Below, piece after piece: positions 3,569 through 12,758 of a stretch of 64,000 nt of DNA. Numbering within the stretch: position 1 is the stretch's first letter; each line of letters opens with the position of its first letter. The DNA is taken from positions 20,020 to 84,019 of the IMG/VR virus record IMGVR_UViG_3300032007_004013; one strand, written 5' to 3'. Both the position numbers and the translations under genes were made by a program. The stretch comes from a virus. Taxonomy: Duplodnaviria > Caudoviricetes. Under the pieces are notes generated by a model. The model was not told where the DNA came from. It saw only the letters and a program-made list of their open reading frames with translations, and did no database searches.

Positions 3569-4060
3569 TTAGTCATCAGCATAGACAACCTCGCTCATTT
3601 CCAGCAAGCAATCCTCAAGAAACTCGATACGTTCGTCCTTTACGGCGCTTGACATCTCAAGCTCTGTAATGCGTTCATCTTTGGCTGTGCTCGATGCTTC
3701 AAGCTCAGTGATTCTGAAACGCATTTGCTCGATAGTCATTACCTGTGTTCCGCTATCTTCTTGCGGTTCATCTTGAGGTTCAGGCTCAGGCTCGTCAAGT
3801 TGGAGAACGAGCATTTCATAATCTGCTTCGGCGATCACCTTTGCGGTAACGCCTGTTTTTGTCGCTCCTTCCGGCATCTGGTTTCTTCCGTCAAGCTGAT
3901 AAATATGCTCTCCGTTTTTCGACACAATTCCTTGCGCTCTGAGCCTTGAGCAACTCTCAACAAGACGGTTCTTTTCCTGCCACCTGACAAAATCAGGAGT
4001 TTCGAGAGCTTCAACCGCTACGACAGTATCGCTGCCGTCAACTAACTTGATATAAACCAT
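3569..4060 (-). CDS. Hypothetical tail-associated protein
   Basis: 163-aa ORF, RBS GAGGAA, C-terminal coiled coil LEDCLLEMSEVVYA. Confidence 0.7.
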   Translation of the reverse strand: MVYIKLVDGSDTVVAVEALETPDFVRWQEKNRLVESCSRLRAQGIVSKNGEHIYQLDGRNQMPEGATKTGVTAKVIAEADYEMLVLQLDEPEPEPQDEPQEDSGTQVMTIEQMRFRITELEASSTAKDERITELEMSSAVKDERIEFLEDCLLEMSEVVYADD

Positions 4061-5192
4061 ACGATTCCTCTCTTTCCGCCTGACGTAGCAGGCTGTTGTA
4101 AAGTGCTGTCATATTATTGCGTGTATGCCACGCATTGAAGCGAAGCGAATAGCCGTACCAGCTTTGATAGGATTGGTAGATAGCGTGAAACGGAACAAGA
4201 CGGTTTCTCCACCGCTTAAAAAGCTTTTTCAACCTCTTCCGGCAGCGTTTAATACTCGCCTTGCATATTTTTCTGACAACCTTTCCGTTCTTCGTCAGAA
4301 AGAACCTAACTTTCAGCCAAGTAAATCCGTGACTAAGCTTCACAATCTGCGTTTTCTTCTTGTTGAGCTTTATGTCAAGGATTCTGCAAATCTCTGCTAT
4401 AGCTTTCTGAACTTTTATCAAACGCTGTTTAGATATGTCGGTCATTACACCGTCATCCATATATCTCTCGAACAGCTTGATAATCAACTTTTCTTTGATT
4501 TCGTGGTCGAGATCATTTGCCGAAGCAAGAGCGAGGATTTGACTGATCTGACTACCTAAGCCAAGACCAACCTCTCCGAACGCGTCGATAAAATGCGAAG
4601 TTAGCTTAAAGAGCCGTTCATCGGACAGTTCGTTCCGAATAATTCTCTTAACAAGCTTGTGCGATACGTTGTCGAAGAACTTCGAGAAGTCAAACAACAA
4701 AGCATATCCGCTGTTTCCGTACTTTCTGTAATGCCTTCTGAGTTGTTCTGTAACGCGCTTTATCGCAAAATCATAGCCTTTGTCTTTCATTGAAGCGCCG
4801 TTATCGTAGATAAACGTCCTACCGAGAGCAGGAACAAGGCAAAAGTCGCACAGACAACGCTGCACAACTCTCTCGTCAATAACAGTCGATCGAATATGCC
4901 TTTTCTTTCCTCTCTCGAATAGGTCAAATTCAAAGAATCCGGGACTTTTGTACTTTCCATTCCTGAGCTTCTTGAGCGTAGTGTACACGTTCAGCGAAGC
5001 GAACAGACAATACTTCTGAACGCTCGATTTCCACGTTACGTTTCTTCTGCATCTTTTGTAGGAAACGTAAAGGTGCTTGAACGTAAACACTTTGTCGAAA
5101 TCATCAACATTTTCAAGTGCTTTCTGCTTCTTTGCTATCCTTCTCTCTTTTCGGCGCTGGTATCGATTTTCTTTCCTATCTTCGCTTGTCAT
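4038..5192 (-). CDS. DGR reverse transcriptase
   Basis: RT motifs GKKRHI, FDFSKFFDNVSH, GLGLGSQISQ, RYMDD; start MTSEDRK at 5192 with AAAGGAG RBS; about 384 aa with no endonuclease domain; adjacent to TR. Confidence 0.95.
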   Translation of the reverse strand: MTSEDRKENRYQRRKERRIAKKQKALENVDDFDKVFTFKHLYVSYKRCRRNVTWKSSVQKYCLFASLNVYTTLKKLRNGKYKSPGFFEFDLFERGKKRHIRSTVIDERVVQRCLCDFCLVPALGRTFIYDNGASMKDKGYDFAIKRVTEQLRRHYRKYGNSGYALLFDFSKFFDNVSHKLVKRIIRNELSDERLFKLTSHFIDAFGEVGLGLGSQISQILALASANDLDHEIKEKLIIKLFERYMDDGVMTDISKQRLIKVQKAIAEICRILDIKLNKKKTQIVKLSHGFTWLKVRFFLTKNGKVVRKICKASIKRCRKRLKKLFKRWRNRLVPFHAIYQSYQSWYGYSLRFNAWHTRNNMTALYNSLLRQAEREESYGLYQVS

Positions 5193-5422
5193 ATAATCTC
5201 CTTTGCGAGCGTGTATGTCTGAGTTGAGGGTTGGTGTAGACACATAGCGATGCAGGGCATTAAACGCGGAATAACCCACAATCCGCGCAATGCAAGCAGC
5301 GTCCGCCCTGACGCATCACGTCGCTTATTCACCTTGCAGGCTTGCGCCTGCTCGGAAGGTCATGTTCTCCTTCTCTCCACTTGGTCTGATTTCCCTATTG
5401 GTACTCTGTCTGCCTTGAGAGG
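5193..5422 (-). ncRNA. DGR RNA 3' spacer between TR and RT, multi-stem
   Basis: Stems CGCGGA/TCCGCG (5265-5287), GCGTC/GACGC (5299-5314), AGCGA/TCGCT (5246-5325), GCAGG/CCTGC (5336-5351). Confidence 0.6.
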
Positions 5423-5550
5423 AGCCGAACGACACGCCATTCGAGTTGCTCGCGTTGTTGTTGTTCTCGTTGCCGTTGTTGTTGACATTCGCAAAGTTAG
5501 TGGTGTTGGACGACCACGGGGAGCGCAGCCACCAATTGTTGGCGGAACCG
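5423..5550 (-). repeat. DGR template repeat (TR)
   Basis: 128-nt ungapped match to 6107-6234; all 11 mismatches are at TR adenines (coding strand); 34 adenines, 15 AAC/AAT codons. Confidence 0.97.
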
Positions 5551-5604
5551 CAATGAGTCAACACGCAACTTAATAATCGTACAGAACATAACCTGTAATT
5601 TGCT

Positions 5605-6033
5605 TTATTTCTTATTTCCGAACAGTTTCTTGTATCTTGCCGAATCGCTTTTAAGTACACCTTTTATCAAGTCAAGCTCTTTTCTAACTACAGGCATCAG
5701 CTTCTCAATTTCGTCAAGGTTGATGTTGTCTTTCAGCGCAATGAGAACTTCAAGCTGCGCGACAAGAAAATACGCCTTTCCTCGTGCCGTGAGGAAATAA
5801 TCTCTGCGTCTTTGCGCTTCGTGCTGATTCGTGGGGTAAATCGAATTGCCCATTATCACATTCTCGAAAACATCTGTCGCGAGTTGCGATATTCTCTGAC
5901 CTTTGTAGAACGTGAGTTTCTTTGGGATATTCTCGTCCTTCTTGCAAAACCGAGTGACTTTCACATCAAGCTCAAGTGCTGTTCTGAGGAACTCTGTATC
6001 TGCTACTCCTCGTAGGTATAATGGAACTGACAT
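5605..6033 (-). CDS. avd: DGR accessory variability determinant (Avd-like four-helix bundle)
   Basis: 142-aa basic helical protein between VR and TR, the canonical avd position. Confidence 0.85.
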   Translation of the reverse strand: MSVPLYLRGVADTEFLRTALELDVKVTRFCKKDENIPKKLTFYKGQRISQLATDVFENVIMGNSIYPTNQHEAQRRRDYFLTARGKAYFLVAQLEVLIALKDNINLDEIEKLMPVVRKELDLIKGVLKSDSARYKKLFGNKK

Positions 6034-6051
6034 ATATTCTCCTTAAAAGCA

Positions 6052-6080
6052 ATATCTCGCTACACACGGTAGCGAGATAT
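6052..6080 (-). promoter_or_regulatory. DGR target-recognition hairpin/cruciform downstream of VR
   Basis: ATATCTCGCTAC (6052-6063) / GTAGCGAGATAT (6069-6080): perfect 12-bp stem, 5-nt loop, 12 nt after the target stop codon. Confidence 0.85.
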
Positions 6081-6092
6081 GAGATGGTAAGA

Positions 6093-9000
6093 TTAGGCAA
6101 GTGAGAAGCCGAACGACACGCCATACGAGTCGCTCGCGACGTTGCTGTACTCGTAGCCGTTGCTGGTGACAATCGCAAAGTTAGTGGTGTTGGACGACCA
6201 CGGGGAGCGCAGCCACCAATTGTCGGCGGAACCGGTGCCGTTGTAATACTTCTTGATTCTCGAATTATTGTCCGTGAATAAGGAACACTTCAAGTCCTCT
6301 GCTTCTGAATCAACCTCGTACATATACGGATTCTCAGCTGTTCTGAAGCCGACCTCTGCCATAGAACGGAGGTACAGCCAATCCTCTGAACTGATGATGT
6401 TAGCGGAAGTGTTACCTTGCGATGACAAGACAATAACCTTCGCGATCATCGTTTTCCAGTGTCTCGGCAATTCAGGGAAAGCGGTGTTGTTCAGCCAATT
6501 TCTCATAGCACAATCGCGCCAGCCGCCAACATTTGTGTTTCCGCTGTTCATCTGTCTTGTGGCGTTCATAATGCCGAGCATACCGAACGAAACAGGAGCG
6601 AAGTTTCCGCTGTTGTCAGCCAACTTGTAGTGGCTAAAGTGCTCTACGCGAAGTATGATTTCCGTGTCAGCAAACTTATTGGTCGAAACAAGAATTTTCA
6701 CCTTGTCACCTTTGCTGAAGAAGTCTTTGCACCTGTTCGCTTTGATGATTCCGTAGAACTCAGCAAGCGTATATGCGCTGTTGTCGTTCGGGTTGTCACT
6801 GAACAGGTAATCGTAGGACACAGGTACGGAGCTGGGAAGGGTAGGAGTGATATACTGAGCATGAATATCCATGTCACTTACGACGTTTACAGCTGCATTG
6901 TCGAATCCCATCCAGATTGTGCCTGCCGGACCTGAGAGATCATTTCCTTCGTAATCGCAGCTTCCGTGTGTTTCAACGTTGTGCGTTTCGAGGAGTGTCG
7001 AGCCGTCGTAATACCTGACTACAAATATTCTCGTGCTGCGGTTATAAGTAGCGGTCAACGTTGTGTTCGCGTTGATGTTTTCAAGCGAGCCGTTCCAACC
7101 TGTAAACGTGTACTGATAATCTACAGTAGGCGTTTTGGTCGGCGTTTGGATTGCGCCGGAAGCTACAGGATTGACAGCATTGTTTCCTGCTCTTACAGTT
7201 TCTGTGTAAAGAGTTGTGCCGTCATCATTAACGAACGTGACTGTATAAGTTTCGACTATCTGATCGTAGTCGAAGGTGAGGTAGGGGAAAGCTGCGATAA
7301 GCGTCCTGATTTCGTCCTCGGTAATCTTGTTGATATGAGCGTAACCGCTGAGGAAGAATGAGCCTGCTTCTTCAATCGGATTTCCTTCTGCGTCGATACC
7401 TTTCAAGGTTGCAAGACGAGTAAGCACGTCAGCGTCAGCAAACGACCAATTCACATTTGTGATTCGTCCTCTAATGAGGTTGGGCGCGTTAGCTACAAGC
7501 GTATCAGAAGGAACGCCGGGGCTGTCTTCTACCAAAATCGTTGTCAAGCTGTTTCCTGCACACGAGAAATTCGCTGACGTAAGGTTAGGAAGATTTCTTG
7601 CGTGAAGCGTTCTGACATTCGTTCCGAGAATCGCTTTCCTCAAGATCTTGCTTTGCGGCAGATAAACGTCTGTAGTGCCTGTTCCTGCAATCATCACTTC
7701 TTCAAGAAGGTTGCAGCGTGTCAGATTGAGCGCGCCTGAGATGCCACTTTGTCCTCTAAGGTCAATGACTCTCAAAAGAGGAACATTAGGCTTATCTGCC
7801 GGGTTTAGTGCAAGGCTTTTGAGGTTGCTTGAACTGTAGGTTTCTCCGCCGAGCAGAAGATCGCGCAGCTTTTCGCCGTTAGTGATATTGACCTGACCGG
7901 GATAGAGGTTGGCTGCTCCTCCAACGTGCATAAGATTTCTGCCGTTGAACAGCTGAACATTGACCTCACCTGCTGACAAGACAAACGGATCTCCGTTACC
8001 GTCAAGGCACTGGACAATAGCGGTTTCGCCCTTTGTCATTCTTCTGCTTCCTGCCGGAGTGTTATCTCTGAGGAATCCGACGTACATATCGCTGTATGGC
8101 GTAAGTTCGAGTGCTGACGAGAAGTTTGCTCCGGGCATCGCCTGATATGTAATCAGATCGCTTTTCGCTTTGGCACTGACATATTTGGAGGATATGAACA
8201 GCTCTCTGTATGTGATAAACTGTTCACGCTGAGGTCTTTTCTCACCGTGCTCCATGTTCTCCATCCAGCTTGTGTTTCCTGCGTTTTCGATCGGCGCGTC
8301 GTACTTGCCTGCGTAGTCTTCGATAACGAGAGCTTCAGGGCGCTGGCGCTGATATTCGTCGAAGAACTCAATCAAAGTTTCTGCATCAAACAGTTTGCGG
8401 TTTTCGTAAACGCTGTACGCAACTGCAAGCTCGTTCTGGAAGCAATCTCTTACGTTGCAGAACAGTACACTTTCCGCCGCGTTGAAGTACGGGTGCGTGT
8501 TGCCGTCTTCTTCGTCAGTGTAGCCGTCTGTATCTTCGATGCTGTAGGCTTCACCCCATCTGAACTGTCCTTTGTTGTCAATACCGAGAATTGTATCTCC
8601 GTCGTAATACTTGCTCAGGTTCCAACGCCATACATCGTTTTCGTCAGGCTCGTAGGAAAGGAACATGTTTTTCGCTCTCTGATCTACGCCGAGGAAGAAC
8701 TCAGTGAACAGGTAGTAGTACAGCAGATTATCGAGATTGAAGTAGTCGCCCACCTCTCTCTTGAACTTCGCTCTGCGGTATGCAGCTGTATCTCTGACGT
8801 GGATATCAAATCTGTCGCTGACATCGAGCGTTTCGTTTGTTGCCTGTTCGGGGTCAGTTGAGTTCACCCAATGGTGCATTTCAATGAAGCGGTCCTTCAT
8901 GGCCTGAGTGCCTTCGCCATCAGGGTATCTGAACTCAAAATGAGAGGGAAGATCGGTTCCATCTTCCTTCCAACCTTCGTTCTCGAAATCGCTCGTCTTA

Positions 9001-12000
9001 AACGTGCAGCGCGTGTAGGTGTTCTCGCGGAACTCTATGCAGCACTGCTGATGGTTTTCGTCGTCCCACTGACTTGTCTGACCGAATACTTCCGTATTCT
9101 TCTTGCTGTTGTTCATGTCTCCTGCAAAGTACAGGATAGTTTCGTCGGGCGCAAGCGTTCTTGCGCCGTTTACGCCGAGAAGCAGAGGTCTGTTGCTTGT
9201 GTTCTTGATGAACACAGCACACGGATGTCCTTCAACAGAATCTCTGCACTTGCTGTTCACGCTTTTCGCCTTTGAGACAAGCGGATTGAAAGCATTAAAC
9301 AGCTCTGCCGAACACACGTTGTTGCAATGCTCTGATGAAGCTACATTCGCCTTCAGATTGAAATACTTCACAGGGATAGAGTTCGCAGACATCGCGTAGC
9401 CGTTAAGGATTGCGTCGGTGCTTGAAACCTTCATCGTGGTCTTCTTCATGTTGATATCGAGGTTTCCTGCACATTGACGGTAGTTCATAGAGCTTGTACC
9501 CTGCAAGGTGTAGAAAGCGTTATCAGCGTACCACTGATCTTCCGCAACGCCGTTGCCGATTTGGTGGATAATCTTACAGCTTGTGTTGCCGCCGCTTCCT
9601 TTATCTCCGGGGAATCCGCCTGTTTCGATCGTGATGATGTGGAGGGCAGGCGCTGCTACCATCAGCTTTTCAATGCTGATCGTGCCGTCGCTGTTGTAGA
9701 TGTCGTTTCTCTCGTATCTTGCAAGCATTTCATCTACGTTTGGAGCGTCAGCGATGAAGTTCTGCATGATTTCTTTATCGAGAAGCGAAACTCTGTACAT
9801 CTTGAAGCGATACACCCAAATATCACAGTCAGAGCTTCCGATTACAAAAGCATCGGGATTGCCCTGTACAAACTGCGTTTTTGTGCTTCCGGTGAGGAAC
9901 GTGGTTCCTTTTGCAGGAGTTCCTTCAAGCCAAAACTTCATCGAAGATTTTGTCGGGTCGATGTTCAGACACATCTCAACCTGTCTGTTTTCGCAGTATT
10001 GGCATGTGATGTTGTTTCCTGCTCCGAACAATGCGTTGTGAGCGTACAGCTCAATTCCCATTCCGCTGTCATAGGAGTGGGCGATCTTTGTATCGTAGTT
10101 CGTGACGTTGGTTGTCTTGAAAATCATCGACAGGTGTTTACCCGTTCCTGTAACGCCTGTTTCGCCGTTGGTGTTATCACTTGCAAGGAACAGTGAACGG
10201 TCAAACGTGACACTTGTTCCTCTCTTGACTACGAAGGCGACTGCTCCGTTTTCGTCGCGCTGGAATCCGCCGTTATCCCAATCAAAGTTCGCGGAATAGG
10301 TGAGTGGATGATTCGTTCCGCTGCTGTCTGAGTAACCGAAGTTTGATCTGTTTTCTTCTGAGTTGCTATGACCGGAGGGGTTCAGGTCCATGATGATTCC
10401 ATCGGTGATCGGAGAAACATCTATGCCGATGGACTGAACGGTTACATCTATCTTCTTTGACACTGAACCTCTTACGGTAGTAATGCGAAGCTCTTTGTCG
10501 CCGAGAGTGGTCGGGCGGTATGTCCATATCTGAACATCTCTTCCGACGCTCAGACTTGACACAACGGTATTGTCTACTTTCTGAGTAACTGCGGAAACAG
10601 CATTTTCAGGGTCGTAGGCAATCCACTTAATCTCAACATTTTCGTACTGACGTGCAGCAAGTTCGTCCTTGAAGATGGCTACAATAGGCGTGTTGTTTCC
10701 ATCCTCAATCCATACGCCTGTGTGCTCAAGAGTCGGGACTTCGATAAGCTCTCCGTCAATCGTCATACTCATGCTGGCTTCGATAACGTGAGCGCCGTGA
10801 GTCTGAGCAGGTACTTGAATCGTAATAGGTCTGTTGTTGAGCGTAACGCCTTGCTGTGAGTAAACAGATGTGCCGTCTACAGTTACGGTAATATCTTTGC
10901 TACCTGCGCCTGACGGTGTAACTCTCAGTGTAAGCGGCTCACTTCCGTGGAAAGCAATGTCTGCTATATTCCAACTCAACGCAACATTCGACAAGGTGAT
11001 CGTCCAAGTGAACGATTTTGTCGTTCCGTAGGCATCCTCTACAGTGAGCTTGACGGTGTTTGTCTCACCTGCAAGGTGAGGTCTGATATCGAAGCTATGC
11101 TGCGCTTGCGTGAGGTTTGTTTCGGTAGCTACGCGGTAATTGTTTACATACCAATACGCAGTACCATTACCTTGCGTAGGCTGGTTTGTATCAGCGTCAA
11201 GGCTCACCCACGACCAAAGCAAATTAAACTGCTCTGTTGTGGTGAGAACAGTCAACCTCGCTGACTGCATACCGTTGGTGATTCTAACCTTTGAATCGGC
11301 AGCAGTACCGCTCCCGCTTCCGGCAGGAATGTCGAACGGTGTAAATCCTTCGATATCCTGATCGTTCAGCGTGAGGTGGAGCTTTCCGTCCTCGACGTAG
11401 CCTGAATCAAAGGCAAGTCCGCCTGTTCCGCTGCCGCTTCCAAGAGGAATCGGGTCGCCTACAGCATGACCGTTGCTGTACAGAATCAGGTCGTTGTATT
11501 CTTCGTCGATATCAAAGCCGTCGATCAATGTTCTGTTCGACAAGCTGTTAAGGGCTGTAGATATCGCTGATACTGTATTACTGAGAGCCGTTACGCTTGC
11601 TGTATCTGCTTTTGTCGTCAACTGAGTGTAAATATATGCGATGGCTTTAATCGCCAAATCAGCAGTGTTTCCGGCAGTTCCGTAATGGGCTGTTACGCCT
11701 TGCGGAATGGCTCCGCTATCAATCCTGAAGCTGCCTTCTTCTCTCGCAAAATATACATCAGTGAGATTGGGGCATCCGGCGAATGAGCCGCCGTCAACGC
11801 TCGTTACGTCCTTGTGAACATATATCGTTTTTGCTGTTCCTGAGAAATTGCCTGCCGACAAGGAATTGCCGTTGACAATCTTTACAGGTACGTTGTTTGC
11901 ATCGAATCCGACACTCAAACAGTACCCATAGAGTGAAGCTGCATCGCTTGGAGAAATGACTTGCGTTTTGTTAGCTTTTTGGGCTATGGAAGTTTCAAGC

Positions 12001-12758
12001 GTGTCAACGATATCGTCAACGTCTTCGGCTGTGTAGTACGCTCTTAAAACAGCATAAACAAAAACCCTAACTGCGTTCGAGTTAGGGAAAAGGACATTAT
12101 CCGCCGTTGTTGTTTGCTTGCTTACTGCGATCTCGCCGGATTTGTGCTCGACTTTCTCATAGGAAGCTGATTCAGCTCGAATATCTGCAACCGCCGCGTT
12201 CGCTGTGTTCGCTGCCGTGTTTGCTGCGTCTTTTGCGTCTTCTGCATCCTGCACAACAGACGCAAGATCTTCTACAAGGTCGTTGATTTCATCCTCAGCT
12301 TCCGCAATAGCTTGTCTGCTGCTGTCTATCTCAAGAAACGCTCTTGTCAAGGTCGAAAGCTCGTTACTTGACTGTACAGATGTACTCAACGCTCTCTCTT
12401 CAATCCTGAGTTTGCAGTTTGCAGATGACAGCAATGTTCCGTCAGCTTCGCTCGATATGACGAAATCAAGCGTACCTAAGCCCGGCGCTGCAAGAGCCTG
12501 TTCTGACAGCTTCGCTACAGCATATGATCTATCCTGAGCGATCTCGCAGGCATCATCATCCATAACGCTGTAACCATCTGGCTTTAACACCCTGATCGTC
12601 ACCTTATGTCCTTCCGGGATAGTAACAGGCGCTTTGTTGTCCGTAAAGCGAACCTTGACATATCTGCTCACATCACACTGCTTCGCGTACACGATCGCGG
12701 TGTTGCTTTTCGCATTAAGGTCAAGCGTCACTTCGGAGATGTATTTCATCTCTGCCAT
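6093..12758 (-). CDS. Giant tail fibre/receptor-binding protein and DGR target (BppU-like N-terminus; Ig-like, CotH-like, LRR, Listeria-Bacteroides repeats; C-terminal WWLRS CLec-like domain)
   Basis: 2221 aa; N-terminal VYAKQCDVSRYVKVRF..KPDG; YTVTFVNDDGT..YTFTGW repeats; VR at C-terminus. Confidence 0.9.
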   Translation of the reverse strand: MAEMKYISEVTLDLNAKSNTAIVYAKQCDVSRYVKVRFTDNKAPVTIPEGHKVTIRVLKPDGYSVMDDDACEIAQDRSYAVAKLSEQALAAPGLGTLDFVISSEADGTLLSSANCKLRIEERALSTSVQSSNELSTLTRAFLEIDSSRQAIAEAEDEINDLVEDLASVVQDAEDAKDAANTAANTANAAVADIRAESASYEKVEHKSGEIAVSKQTTTADNVLFPNSNAVRVFVYAVLRAYYTAEDVDDIVDTLETSIAQKANKTQVISPSDAASLYGYCLSVGFDANNVPVKIVNGNSLSAGNFSGTAKTIYVHKDVTSVDGGSFAGCPNLTDVYFAREEGSFRIDSGAIPQGVTAHYGTAGNTADLAIKAIAYIYTQLTTKADTASVTALSNTVSAISTALNSLSNRTLIDGFDIDEEYNDLILYSNGHAVGDPIPLGSGSGTGGLAFDSGYVEDGKLHLTLNDQDIEGFTPFDIPAGSGSGTAADSKVRITNGMQSARLTVLTTTEQFNLLWSWVSLDADTNQPTQGNGTAYWYVNNYRVATETNLTQAQHSFDIRPHLAGETNTVKLTVEDAYGTTKSFTWTITLSNVALSWNIADIAFHGSEPLTLRVTPSGAGSKDITVTVDGTSVYSQQGVTLNNRPITIQVPAQTHGAHVIEASMSMTIDGELIEVPTLEHTGVWIEDGNNTPIVAIFKDELAARQYENVEIKWIAYDPENAVSAVTQKVDNTVVSSLSVGRDVQIWTYRPTTLGDKELRITTVRGSVSKKIDVTVQSIGIDVSPITDGIIMDLNPSGHSNSEENRSNFGYSDSSGTNHPLTYSANFDWDNGGFQRDENGAVAFVVKRGTSVTFDRSLFLASDNTNGETGVTGTGKHLSMIFKTTNVTNYDTKIAHSYDSGMGIELYAHNALFGAGNNITCQYCENRQVEMCLNIDPTKSSMKFWLEGTPAKGTTFLTGSTKTQFVQGNPDAFVIGSSDCDIWVYRFKMYRVSLLDKEIMQNFIADAPNVDEMLARYERNDIYNSDGTISIEKLMVAAPALHIITIETGGFPGDKGSGGNTSCKIIHQIGNGVAEDQWYADNAFYTLQGTSSMNYRQCAGNLDINMKKTTMKVSSTDAILNGYAMSANSIPVKYFNLKANVASSEHCNNVCSAELFNAFNPLVSKAKSVNSKCRDSVEGHPCAVFIKNTSNRPLLLGVNGARTLAPDETILYFAGDMNNSKKNTEVFGQTSQWDDENHQQCCIEFRENTYTRCTFKTSDFENEGWKEDGTDLPSHFEFRYPDGEGTQAMKDRFIEMHHWVNSTDPEQATNETLDVSDRFDIHVRDTAAYRRAKFKREVGDYFNLDNLLYYYLFTEFFLGVDQRAKNMFLSYEPDENDVWRWNLSKYYDGDTILGIDNKGQFRWGEAYSIEDTDGYTDEEDGNTHPYFNAAESVLFCNVRDCFQNELAVAYSVYENRKLFDAETLIEFFDEYQRQRPEALVIEDYAGKYDAPIENAGNTSWMENMEHGEKRPQREQFITYRELFISSKYVSAKAKSDLITYQAMPGANFSSALELTPYSDMYVGFLRDNTPAGSRRMTKGETAIVQCLDGNGDPFVLSAGEVNVQLFNGRNLMHVGGAANLYPGQVNITNGEKLRDLLLGGETYSSSNLKSLALNPADKPNVPLLRVIDLRGQSGISGALNLTRCNLLEEVMIAGTGTTDVYLPQSKILRKAILGTNVRTLHARNLPNLTSANFSCAGNSLTTILVEDSPGVPSDTLVANAPNLIRGRITNVNWSFADADVLTRLATLKGIDAEGNPIEEAGSFFLSGYAHINKITEDEIRTLIAAFPYLTFDYDQIVETYTVTFVNDDGTTLYTETVRAGNNAVNPVASGAIQTPTKTPTVDYQYTFTGWNGSLENINANTTLTATYNRSTRIFVVRYYDGSTLLETHNVETHGSCDYEGNDLSGPAGTIWMGFDNAAVNVVSDMDIHAQYITPTLPSSVPVSYDYLFSDNPNDNSAYTLAEFYGIIKANRCKDFFSKGDKVKILVSTNKFADTEIILRVEHFSHYKLADNSGNFAPVSFGMLGIMNATRQMNSGNTNVGGWRDCAMRNWLNNTAFPELPRHWKTMIAKVIVLSSQGNTSANIISSEDWLYLRSMAEVGFRTAENPYMYEVDSEAEDLKCSLFTDNNSRIKKYYNGTGSADNWWLRSPWSSNTTNFAIVTSNGYEYSNVASDSYGVSFGFSLA
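6107..6234 (-). repeat. DGR variable repeat (VR) at 3' end of tail-fibre gene
   Basis: GSADNWWLRSPWSSNTTNFAIVTSNGYEYSNVASDSYGVSFG versus TR GSANNWWLRSPWSSNTTNFANVNNNGNENNNNASNSNGVSFG. Confidence 0.97.

Follow-up and report, generated by a model that had tools for sequence, protein, structure and literature searches.

A probably active diversity-generating retroelement with two DUF6273 targets in a prophage of rumen Ruminococcus

Described retroelements of related architecture

The diversity-generating retroelement (DGR) of phage BPP-1 (mtd-avd-TR-brt) and the one described here have in common the order of their parts, adenine-specific mutagenesis, a target with a C-type-lectin fold, IMH/IMH*-like 3' ends, a hairpin after the variable repeat (VR), and reverse transcriptases (RTs) that are homologous over the full length. 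They differ in the RNA of the spacer between the template repeat (TR) and the RT gene, which is RT-10 in BPP-1 (PMC5737381) and RT-2 here; in the target domain, Mtd versus DUF6273; in the number of targets, of which the present DGR has two; and in Avd, for which no similarity was detectable by sequence profile.

Large and small DUF6273 targets of DGRs have been described in the Faecalibacterium phages Lelie/Toutatis and CP11 (PMC11792537, bioRxiv 10.1101/2024.10.15.618418). As in the present phage, one TR serves two VRs, both C-terminal in DUF6273 (C-type-lectin-like) domains; one VR can be separated from the TR by more than 10 kb; and activity was inferred from variation at A sites among cognate genomes. 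However, the RTs of the Faecalibacterium phages are only about 30% identical to the present RT, and Toutatisvirus has, in place of a tail fibre, a Hoc-like protein with Ig domains as the nearby target. Tentaclins and the target-2 proteins of nd4/nd12 (PMC10743442) likewise have DUF6273 / C-lec domains in which a beta-hairpin is encoded by the VR, and there, again, two targets depend on a single TR. In tentaclins, the C-lec domain and VR are N-terminal and followed by Ig domains, whereas both VRs described here are at the extreme C-terminus, and no Ig-like domain was found by Pfam in either target. On these grounds, the assignment of the present targets to tentaclins was ruled out.

Roseburia phage Shimadzu (LR596903) shares with the present phage the order tail fibre (with a DUF6273 C-terminus), Avd, TR, RT-2 RNA (144.9 bits) and RT, as well as a second, small DUF6273 target, orf43, located about 12 kb away among early genes, with 15 of 15 changes at A. 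The diversification of two Shimadzu proteins is cited in PMC11792537 as previously reported. Shimadzu differs in its P2-like baseplate and in a fibre of 431 aa, as opposed to the 2221-aa fibre of the siphovirus-type prophage here, and comes from a different host family and habitat (Ruminococcus and the rumen for the present phage); a megablast search with window positions 1-25000 detected no nucleotide similarity between the two. The architecture that combines a tail fibre with a small remote DUF6273 target is already published (Shimadzu, Lelie, CP11).

Parts of the cassette

The locus in the window (the whole 64,000-nt stretch of DNA analysed) is very probably a complete DGR of a temperate siphovirus-like prophage, integrated beside queA in the genome of a Ruminococcus (bromii-group) from the rumen, with one TR and two targets. 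All genes of the cassette are on the minus strand, and the features within the window are as follows:

4038..5192, minus strand: DGR reverse transcriptase, 384 aa (RVT_1; LGSQISQ in motif 4; YMDD)
5185..5418, minus strand: structured spacer RNA, Rfam RF03077 (RT-2 RNA), between TR and RT start
5423..5550 (5550->5423), minus strand: TR, template repeat, from the ungapped repeat alignment with VR1
5605..6033, minus strand: accessory gene, 142 aa, predicted Avd-like four-helix bundle (position, AF2 and homology)
6052..6080, minus strand: hairpin 3' of VR1, perfect 12-bp stem with loop CGTGT (fold)
6107..6234 (6234->6107), minus strand: VR1, variable repeat, 11/11 mismatches at TR adenines
6093..12758, minus strand: target 1, tail fibre / receptor-binding protein, 2221 aa (ORF list, Pfam and neighbours)

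TR and VR1 align without gaps over 128 nt, with a spacing of 684 nt, and VR1 makes up 44 codons at the end of target 1, finishing 4 codons short of the stop codon. The two repeats differ at exactly 11 positions, all of them adenines in TR (five A>T, five A>G and one A>C), and ten AAY codons of TR are changed to D, I, T, S, Y, Y, S, V, D and Y in VR1. The 34 adenines of TR are distributed among 15 AAY codons and four single-A codons, none of which can be converted to a stop by mutation of A, and up to about 1e20 protein variants of VR1 are possible. A first-pass annotation had claimed the ungapped 128-nt alignment, the adenine-specific mismatches with the same 5/5/1 split and the same ten codon changes, the order target-hairpin-avd-TR-RT, SQ and YMDD motifs in the RT, and divergence of the repeats immediately after ...TTCGGCT (TR CCTCTC vs VR1 TCTCAC); all of this was recovered here from the alignment (5423-5550 / 6107-6234), the ORFs and the coordinates (hairpin 6052-6080). 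An ORF of 111 aa at 5325-5660 (minus strand) was rejected as a gene because its frame reads through TR, which is the only source of its DUF6273 match.

At the 3' end, TR, VR1 and the second variable repeat, VR2 (see below), share 16 nt that are A-free and G+C-rich (GGCGTGTCGTTCGGCT); beyond this shared end, TCT..TTGC.TAATCT is common to VR1 and VR2 and absent in TR. These sequence features give the VRs IMH-like and TR IMH*-like 3' ends, accompanied, as in other DGRs, by a downstream hairpin. The VR1 hairpin is located about 26 nt past the end of TR homology and is identical in all five cognate contigs, and the hairpin after VR2 has a different, 9-bp stem with the identical CGTGT loop at matched spacing. 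The VR1 hairpin is a candidate DGR target-recognition element.

The most likely start codon of the RT gene is the ATG at 5192, giving 384 aa as in the cognate contigs, rather than the GTG at 5279. The protein matches Pfam RVT_1 and phrog_1423 (4.5e-73) and contains the motifs of DGR-clade RTs, [I/L/V]GxxxSQ in motif 4 and YxDD. It is 41% identical to the RT of phage Shimadzu and 35% identical to that of phage nd12, and residues 32-345 align with BPP-1 Brt over the full length (4e-17, 23% identity). Among solved structures, the best match was 8ub7_A (3.2e-14), followed by group II intron RTs (6.7e-10); to judge from an alignment identical to that with Brt, 8ub7_A is the BPP-1 DGR RT. Given the weak NCBIfam similarity of the protein to RTs of group II introns, retrons and Drt systems, the locus could in principle consist of an ordinary duplication of the fibre 3' end beside an unrelated RT, with the A bias arising by chance or from base composition. 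However, the respective scores are far under the NCBIfam cut-offs (group II intron, 87.6/300 bits; retron St85, 39.6/235; Drt3a, 38.2/200), so that the retron, group II intron and Drt assignments were all rejected, and the closest solved structure is the apparent BPP-1 RT. The probability that all 11 VR1 mismatches fall on A by chance (34 A in 128 nt) is P = 1.2e-7, and the corresponding value for the eight changes in VR2 is P = 1.9e-5. These values, the alignment with Brt and the concerted evolution of TR and VR in related phages refute the duplication, the probability of which we consider negligible.

The RT-2 RNA match in the spacer is full length (106.8 bits, gathering threshold 40; E 3e-25; model positions 1-222/222), starts 5 nt past the TR homology, and takes in the ribosome-binding site and ATG of the RT gene. 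The same RNA occupies the spacer between TR and RT in the five cognates and in phage Shimadzu; a structured RNA at this position is a feature of DGRs.

The 142-aa ORF is located where DGRs encode the accessory variability determinant, a small basic helical-bundle protein, between target and TR. This protein has no direct match among Pfam and NCBIfam models, including those of Avd; comparisons with PDB sequences, using both the single sequence and a profile, yielded only noise; and hhalign of the family profile against BPP-1 Avd was negative, at a probability of 0.1. Its AF2 model is a four-helix bundle (pLDDT 76), for which the best Foldseek matches are 2gsc and 2rld (family denoted 23S rRNA-IVP in Pfam), and its sequence shows 29% identity (3e-14) with the protein annotated as Avd in phage Shimadzu. 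Judging from these comparisons, the protein appears to be a divergent branch of Avd that is tied to the Avd families only transitively, because 8 of 71 relatives match PF05635 and PF22296 bAvd (best E 2.7e-6 and 5.2e-6), whereas the protein itself matches neither. The first-pass annotation had missed the lack of a direct match to any Avd model, the identity of the spacer as RT-2 RNA, and the second target, which is outside the window.

Target 1 is encoded directly after TMP, Dit, a Tal-like 1046-aa protein and a 63-aa ORF (PHROGs, Pfam). The fibre is a multidomain protein, with a weak CotH-like match, regions of phrog_14959 and phrog_24896, and a C-terminal DUF6273 domain (residues 2068-2214, Pfam 1.4e-14). 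From this Pfam domain, which is shared with the modelled small target, we infer that the tip of the fibre adopts a C-type-lectin fold; in both targets, the VR forms the 3' end of the DUF6273-encoding ORF.

The small remote target

VR2 is located outside the window, 11.5 kb from the cassette, at the end of the gene for a 236-aa DUF6273 protein, and shares 106 of the 128 TR nucleotides, with all eight changes at A; 30 TR-adenine positions are represented in VR2. The gene is among early/accessory genes in both the present phage and phage Shimadzu. The distance from the cassette, the position outside the structural module and the incomplete sharing of TR nucleotides would be compatible with a paralogous DUF6273 gene that has common ancestry with VR1 and is not rewritten by TR. 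Against such a paralog, VR2 is identical to TR over the 106 nt except for the eight A sites, whereas the remainder of the gene has no nucleotide similarity to target 1. Furthermore, VR2 carries the private TR variant of the lineage, T at TR position 5499; it is followed by the VR-specific 3' sequence and a CGTGT-loop hairpin, as is VR1; close homologues of the small target vary mainly at the VR2 Asn positions; and phage Shimadzu has a matching two-target arrangement with A-specific changes throughout (15/15). We regard the paralog as highly improbable and VR2 as a true target of TR.

Modelled with AF2 at pLDDT 94, the small target resembles the DUF6273 domain of 9qa6 most closely (Z 17.2), with the DGR variable protein TvpA (2y3c, Z 7.7) and 4eps (Z 7.5) as the next structural matches, and also dozens of C-type lectins. 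Up to about 5e17 variants of VR2 are possible. No signal peptide was found in the 236-aa protein, which has an N-terminal CPDC beta-hairpin and is encoded outside the structural module, among small accessory genes. Because of this location and the lack of a signal peptide, 'receptor diversification', the first-pass reading of the DGR, may not describe the small target. It is conceivable, although we consider it rather unlikely, that the small target is not a virion receptor-binding protein but a binder that the DGR diversifies and that acts inside the cell or after release, with a variable defence or surface factor of the host as one conceivable partner. In that case, mutagenic homing would have a conserved non-structural use in this DGR lineage.

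Activity, mechanism and significance

Six cognate phage genomes, including five cognate contigs from other samples, were compared to assess activity. Among these, VR1 is variable in 30 of the 34 columns that correspond to TR adenines, compared with 9 of the 94 other columns. Minority non-A bases of TR are mirrored in VR1 of the same genome in 22 of 31 cases (21 of 22 without contig L091, from sample SRR15023582, in which the altered TR may reflect either self-mutagenesis of TR or an assembly chimera); because such lineage-specific changes were copied into the respective VR, homing continued after the phages diverged. Taken at the level of sequence, these patterns indicate that unidirectional transfer from TR to VR (mutagenic homing) occurred in recent evolution. 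Megablast of window positions 1-25000 against the phage collection produced no match, and an exact-pattern scan of viral contigs with the A-free TR core found none; three loci from a metagenome contig scan were discarded as chance matches because they lack similarity to the present genome.

Related TRs contain fewer adenines (25 in contig L005 and 24 in L091, versus 34), so that such cassettes can drift, and the present DGR might likewise be a recently inactivated relic, with the TR/VR differences as a frozen record of past activity. We consider a relic unlikely: the cassette retains an intact RT, avd-like ORF, 34-A TR with no stop-prone codons, full-length RT-2 RNA and IMH-like ends, together with two intact hairpins, and three other samples have an Avd of 100% identity but VR1s that all differ, which argues for very recent turnover. 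The DGR is probably active, with evolutionary evidence that bears on activity in the lineage rather than in this copy today. The first-pass description of an intact, probably active DGR of BPP-1-type architecture thus holds up, the architecture through the order of parts and the homology of the RT to Brt, and the activity at lineage level through A-column variation in VR1 and the mirrored TR variants.

The mechanism we propose combines the observed parts, adenine specificity, RNA family and recent flow of information from TR to VR, and the computed folds, with elements adopted from the BPP-1 paradigm, namely, spacer priming, a complex of Avd with the RT, the function of the hairpin and the benefit of receptor switching. 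TR and the adjoining RT-2 spacer would be transcribed as a single RNA; the RT, acting with the Avd-like bundle protein, would then copy TR into cDNA, misincorporating opposite template adenines; and the cDNA would replace the VR. Three elements would guide homing: the 3' end that is free of A and rich in G+C, the sequence past this end that is specific to the VRs, and the hairpin farther downstream; the roles given to the hairpins and to the RT-2 RNA are presumed by analogy. The single TR would thereby supply both VR1, in the DUF6273 tip of the 2221-aa fibre, and VR2, in the 236-aa leaderless protein.

The present DGR is real, probably active, and a new member of a type known from earlier work on gut-phage DGRs, such that the current picture of DGR biology is unchanged by these findings. 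The locus is a well-supported case of a DGR with two targets in a prophage of rumen Ruminococcus, and a comparison of six cognates shows that adenine-specific rewriting is ongoing. It assigns the Rfam RT-2 RNA precisely to the spacer between TR and RT of a bona fide DGR and reveals an apparent divergent branch of Avd that escapes the Pfam models, which is useful to DGR annotation pipelines. It also shows that one template of 128 nt suffices to diversify a multidomain tail fibre of 2221 aa.

Repeats, target proteins and targeting signals

The minus strand encodes all genes of the region, and a search for repeats found a single direct repeat of 132 nt (5419-5550 and 6103-6234; 91% identity, spacing 684 nt). 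Read on the coding strand, the template repeat (TR, 5550->5423) and the variable repeat VR1 (6234->6107) align without gaps and with exactly 11 mismatches, all at TR adenines (5 A>T, 5 A>G and 1 A>C). Translated within the 2221-aa ORF, they change ten AAY codons to D, I, T, S, Y, Y, S, V, D and Y. With 34 adenines among the 128 positions, the chance of 11/11 changes on A is 1.2e-7. The first-pass annotation had described this pair correctly in every detail: gapless, adenine-specific and with the same ten codon changes. A 111-aa ORF (5325-5660, minus strand) matching DUF6273 is TR read in frame, likely an annotation trap and not a gene. Searching the whole 84-kb provirus record (G000:C1) with TR yielded a third repeat copy, VR2, at the end of a second target gene.

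Elements of the retroelement and the endolysin gene (window positions unless marked)
128-2380, minus: endolysin, 750 aa, with Peptidase_M15_3, GH25 and PG_binding_1 repeats
4038-5192, minus: reverse transcriptase (RT) ORF, 384 aa, counted from the ATG chosen by gene callers in cognate contigs
5185-5418, minus: RT-2 RNA (Rfam RF03077), 234 nt, from the end of TR homology to the RT start
6093-12758, minus: target 1, 2221-aa ORF following the genes for the tape measure, Dit, a 1046-aa Tal-like protein and a 63-aa ORF
G000:C1:13858-13963, outside the window: VR2
G000:C1:13844-14554 (L003:1487-2197 in a stretch of the same record), minus, outside the window: target 2, 236 aa

Given its position after the tape measure, Dit, Tal-like protein and 63-aa ORF, target 1 is a distal tail fibre; DUF6273 forms its final 150 residues. 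For large stretches of the fibre, the only matches are PHROGs of unknown function, and a weak CotH kinase-like Pfam match (residues ~1322-1428; window 8100-9600, minus strand) scores 23.0 bits, just under the cut-off of 23.8.

VR2 covers TR 5528->5423, with 8/8 mismatches at A (P = 1.9e-5). Target 2 also contains DUF6273 and lacks a signal peptide. Structures matched by its AlphaFold model (pLDDT 94) are the T. ramosa IgA peptidase at its DUF6273 domain (Z 17.2), TvpA, which is a DGR variable protein (Z 7.7), 4eps, a fimbrial tip from B. ovatus (Z 7.5), and numerous C-type lectins. The family comprises ~70 clusters. At the N-terminus, a CPDC motif precedes the C-lec/DUF6273 domain; a classical four-Cys zinc ribbon was rejected, with only two cysteines invariant across the family. 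Neighboring genes include those for DarA_C and MazF-like PHROG proteins. In principle, the one TR can specify ~1.1e20 protein variants through VR1 and 5e17 through VR2, with no stop codons possible among them.

TR, VR1 and VR2 share a 16-nt, A-free, G+C-rich 3' end, past which TCT..TTGC.TAATCT is common to VR1 and VR2 and absent from TR, a pattern as expected for IMH vs IMH*. A perfect hairpin (12 bp for VR1, 9 bp for VR2) comes after each VR, at comparable distances; the stems are unrelated and the 5-nt loop, CGTGT, is identical. The VR1 hairpin is unchanged in relatives that are only ~81-84% identical overall.

Reverse transcriptase, Avd-like protein and spacer RNA

The RT matches RVT_1 and phrog_1423 (4.5e-73) and carries the LGSQISQ and YMDD motifs. 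The closest solved structure is 8ub7_A (3.2e-14), with group II intron RTs ranking behind; this alignment is the same as that of residues 32-345 with Brt of Bordetella phage BPP-1 (23% identity, 4e-17). Models for retrons, group II introns and Drt scored far under their cut-offs. A 163-aa ORF (3569-4060, minus strand), which shares 23 nt with the 3' end of the RT gene, is conserved in position in every cognate contig; it showed no significant family match and may be a further cassette-associated gene.

The 142-aa ORF between VR1 and TR has few close relatives and no match in Pfam or NCBIfam; an exhaustive search recovered 328 representatives of ~135 aa. Its AlphaFold prediction is a four-helix bundle (pLDDT 76); Foldseek ranks 2gsc and 2rld first, both bundles from the 23S-rRNA-IVP family. 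The protein shares 29% identity (3e-14) with the Avd annotated in Roseburia phage Shimadzu, and 8 of 71 relatives match PF05635 and PF22296 (bAvd-like). Because direct profile comparison with BPP-1 Avd was negative, we denote this protein divergent Avd-like: it falls under the functional definition, with an only transitive tie to the Pfam family.

The RF03077 match is full length (106.8 bits vs a gathering score of 40), and five cognate contigs as well as phage Shimadzu carry this element in the equivalent place. RT-10 has been placed in the BPP-1 spacer, and other RT motifs were speculated to serve other DGRs (Weinberg et al., PMC5737381); in the present DGR, RT-2 occupies the TR-RT spacer position.

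Variation among cognate phages

Cognate contigs from other samples were retrieved by exact-protein look-up with Avd, which is identical in L089, L090 and L091, and 79-93% identical in L092 and L005. VR1 differs in every contig, and its mismatches to the respective TR fall at A in 17/17 (L090), 18/18 (L092), 12/13 (L089), 9/10 (L005) and 10/18 (L091) cases. Across the six genomes, VR1 varies in 30 of the 34 consensus-TR adenine columns vs 9 of the 94 other columns. Minority non-A bases of TR are copied into VR1 of the same genome in 22 of 31 cases (21 of 22 leaving out L091), and a T private to the TR of the present genome, at 5499, occurs in both VR1 and VR2. Close homologues of target 2 differ mainly at the VR2 Asn positions. 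Together, these observations indicate that homing from TR to VR went on after the divergence of these phages. The DGR, which the first-pass annotation considered intact and probably active, is real and has all its parts intact; judging from these sequence comparisons, it is very probably active, with present-day activity of this copy being an inference.

In the TRs of L005 (5167-5343) and L091 (775-951), substitutions lie precisely at ancestral adenines; each TR is altered at 10 such sites and retains 25 (L005) or 24 (L091) adenines, vs 34. These TRs look as if they were hit by DGR mutagenesis or VR-to-TR conversion. The VR sequence tracks the altered TR in L005 but not in L091, a Logan assembly that may be a TR/VR chimera.

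Phage context and relation to published retroelements

The record, an IMG/VR provirus, measures 84,019 bp and encodes terminase, portal, major head protein, tape measure, Dit, Tal, holin and the 750-aa endolysin; in cognates, a Phage_holin_1 gene precedes the endolysin. A large serine recombinase gene adjoins host queA, which is 92% identical to queA of rumen Ruminococcus MAGs. The left arm of the provirus has, between small phage genes, an Rfam match to the Hammerhead type II ribozyme (L093:2743-2808, equal to G000:C1:2743-2808, minus strand, outside the window; 45.4 bits vs a gathering score of 37).

As a target domain of DGRs, the C-lec-like DUF6273 is already established (PMC10743442). One TR serves large and small DUF6273 targets in Faecalibacterium phages Lelie and CP11 (PMC11792537), and Toutatisvirus has such paired targets served by one TR, with one of the VRs located 17 kb from it (bioRxiv 10.1101/2024.10.15.618418). 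The present DGR belongs to this already described type. Diversification of two proteins in phage Shimadzu is cited by PMC11792537, and we confirmed both VRs, with changes at A in 17/18 (VR1) and 15/15 (VR2) cases.

Variable repeats of Roseburia phage Shimadzu
L095:2020-2131: VR1, in tail fibre orf22
L004:7953-8082: VR2, in small orf43

The orf43 gene lies between those for a DNA methyltransferase and an Erf recombinase. The two-target layout of Shimadzu is the same as that of the present phage, and hence distant phages have conserved the combination of a fibre and a small protein of the early region.
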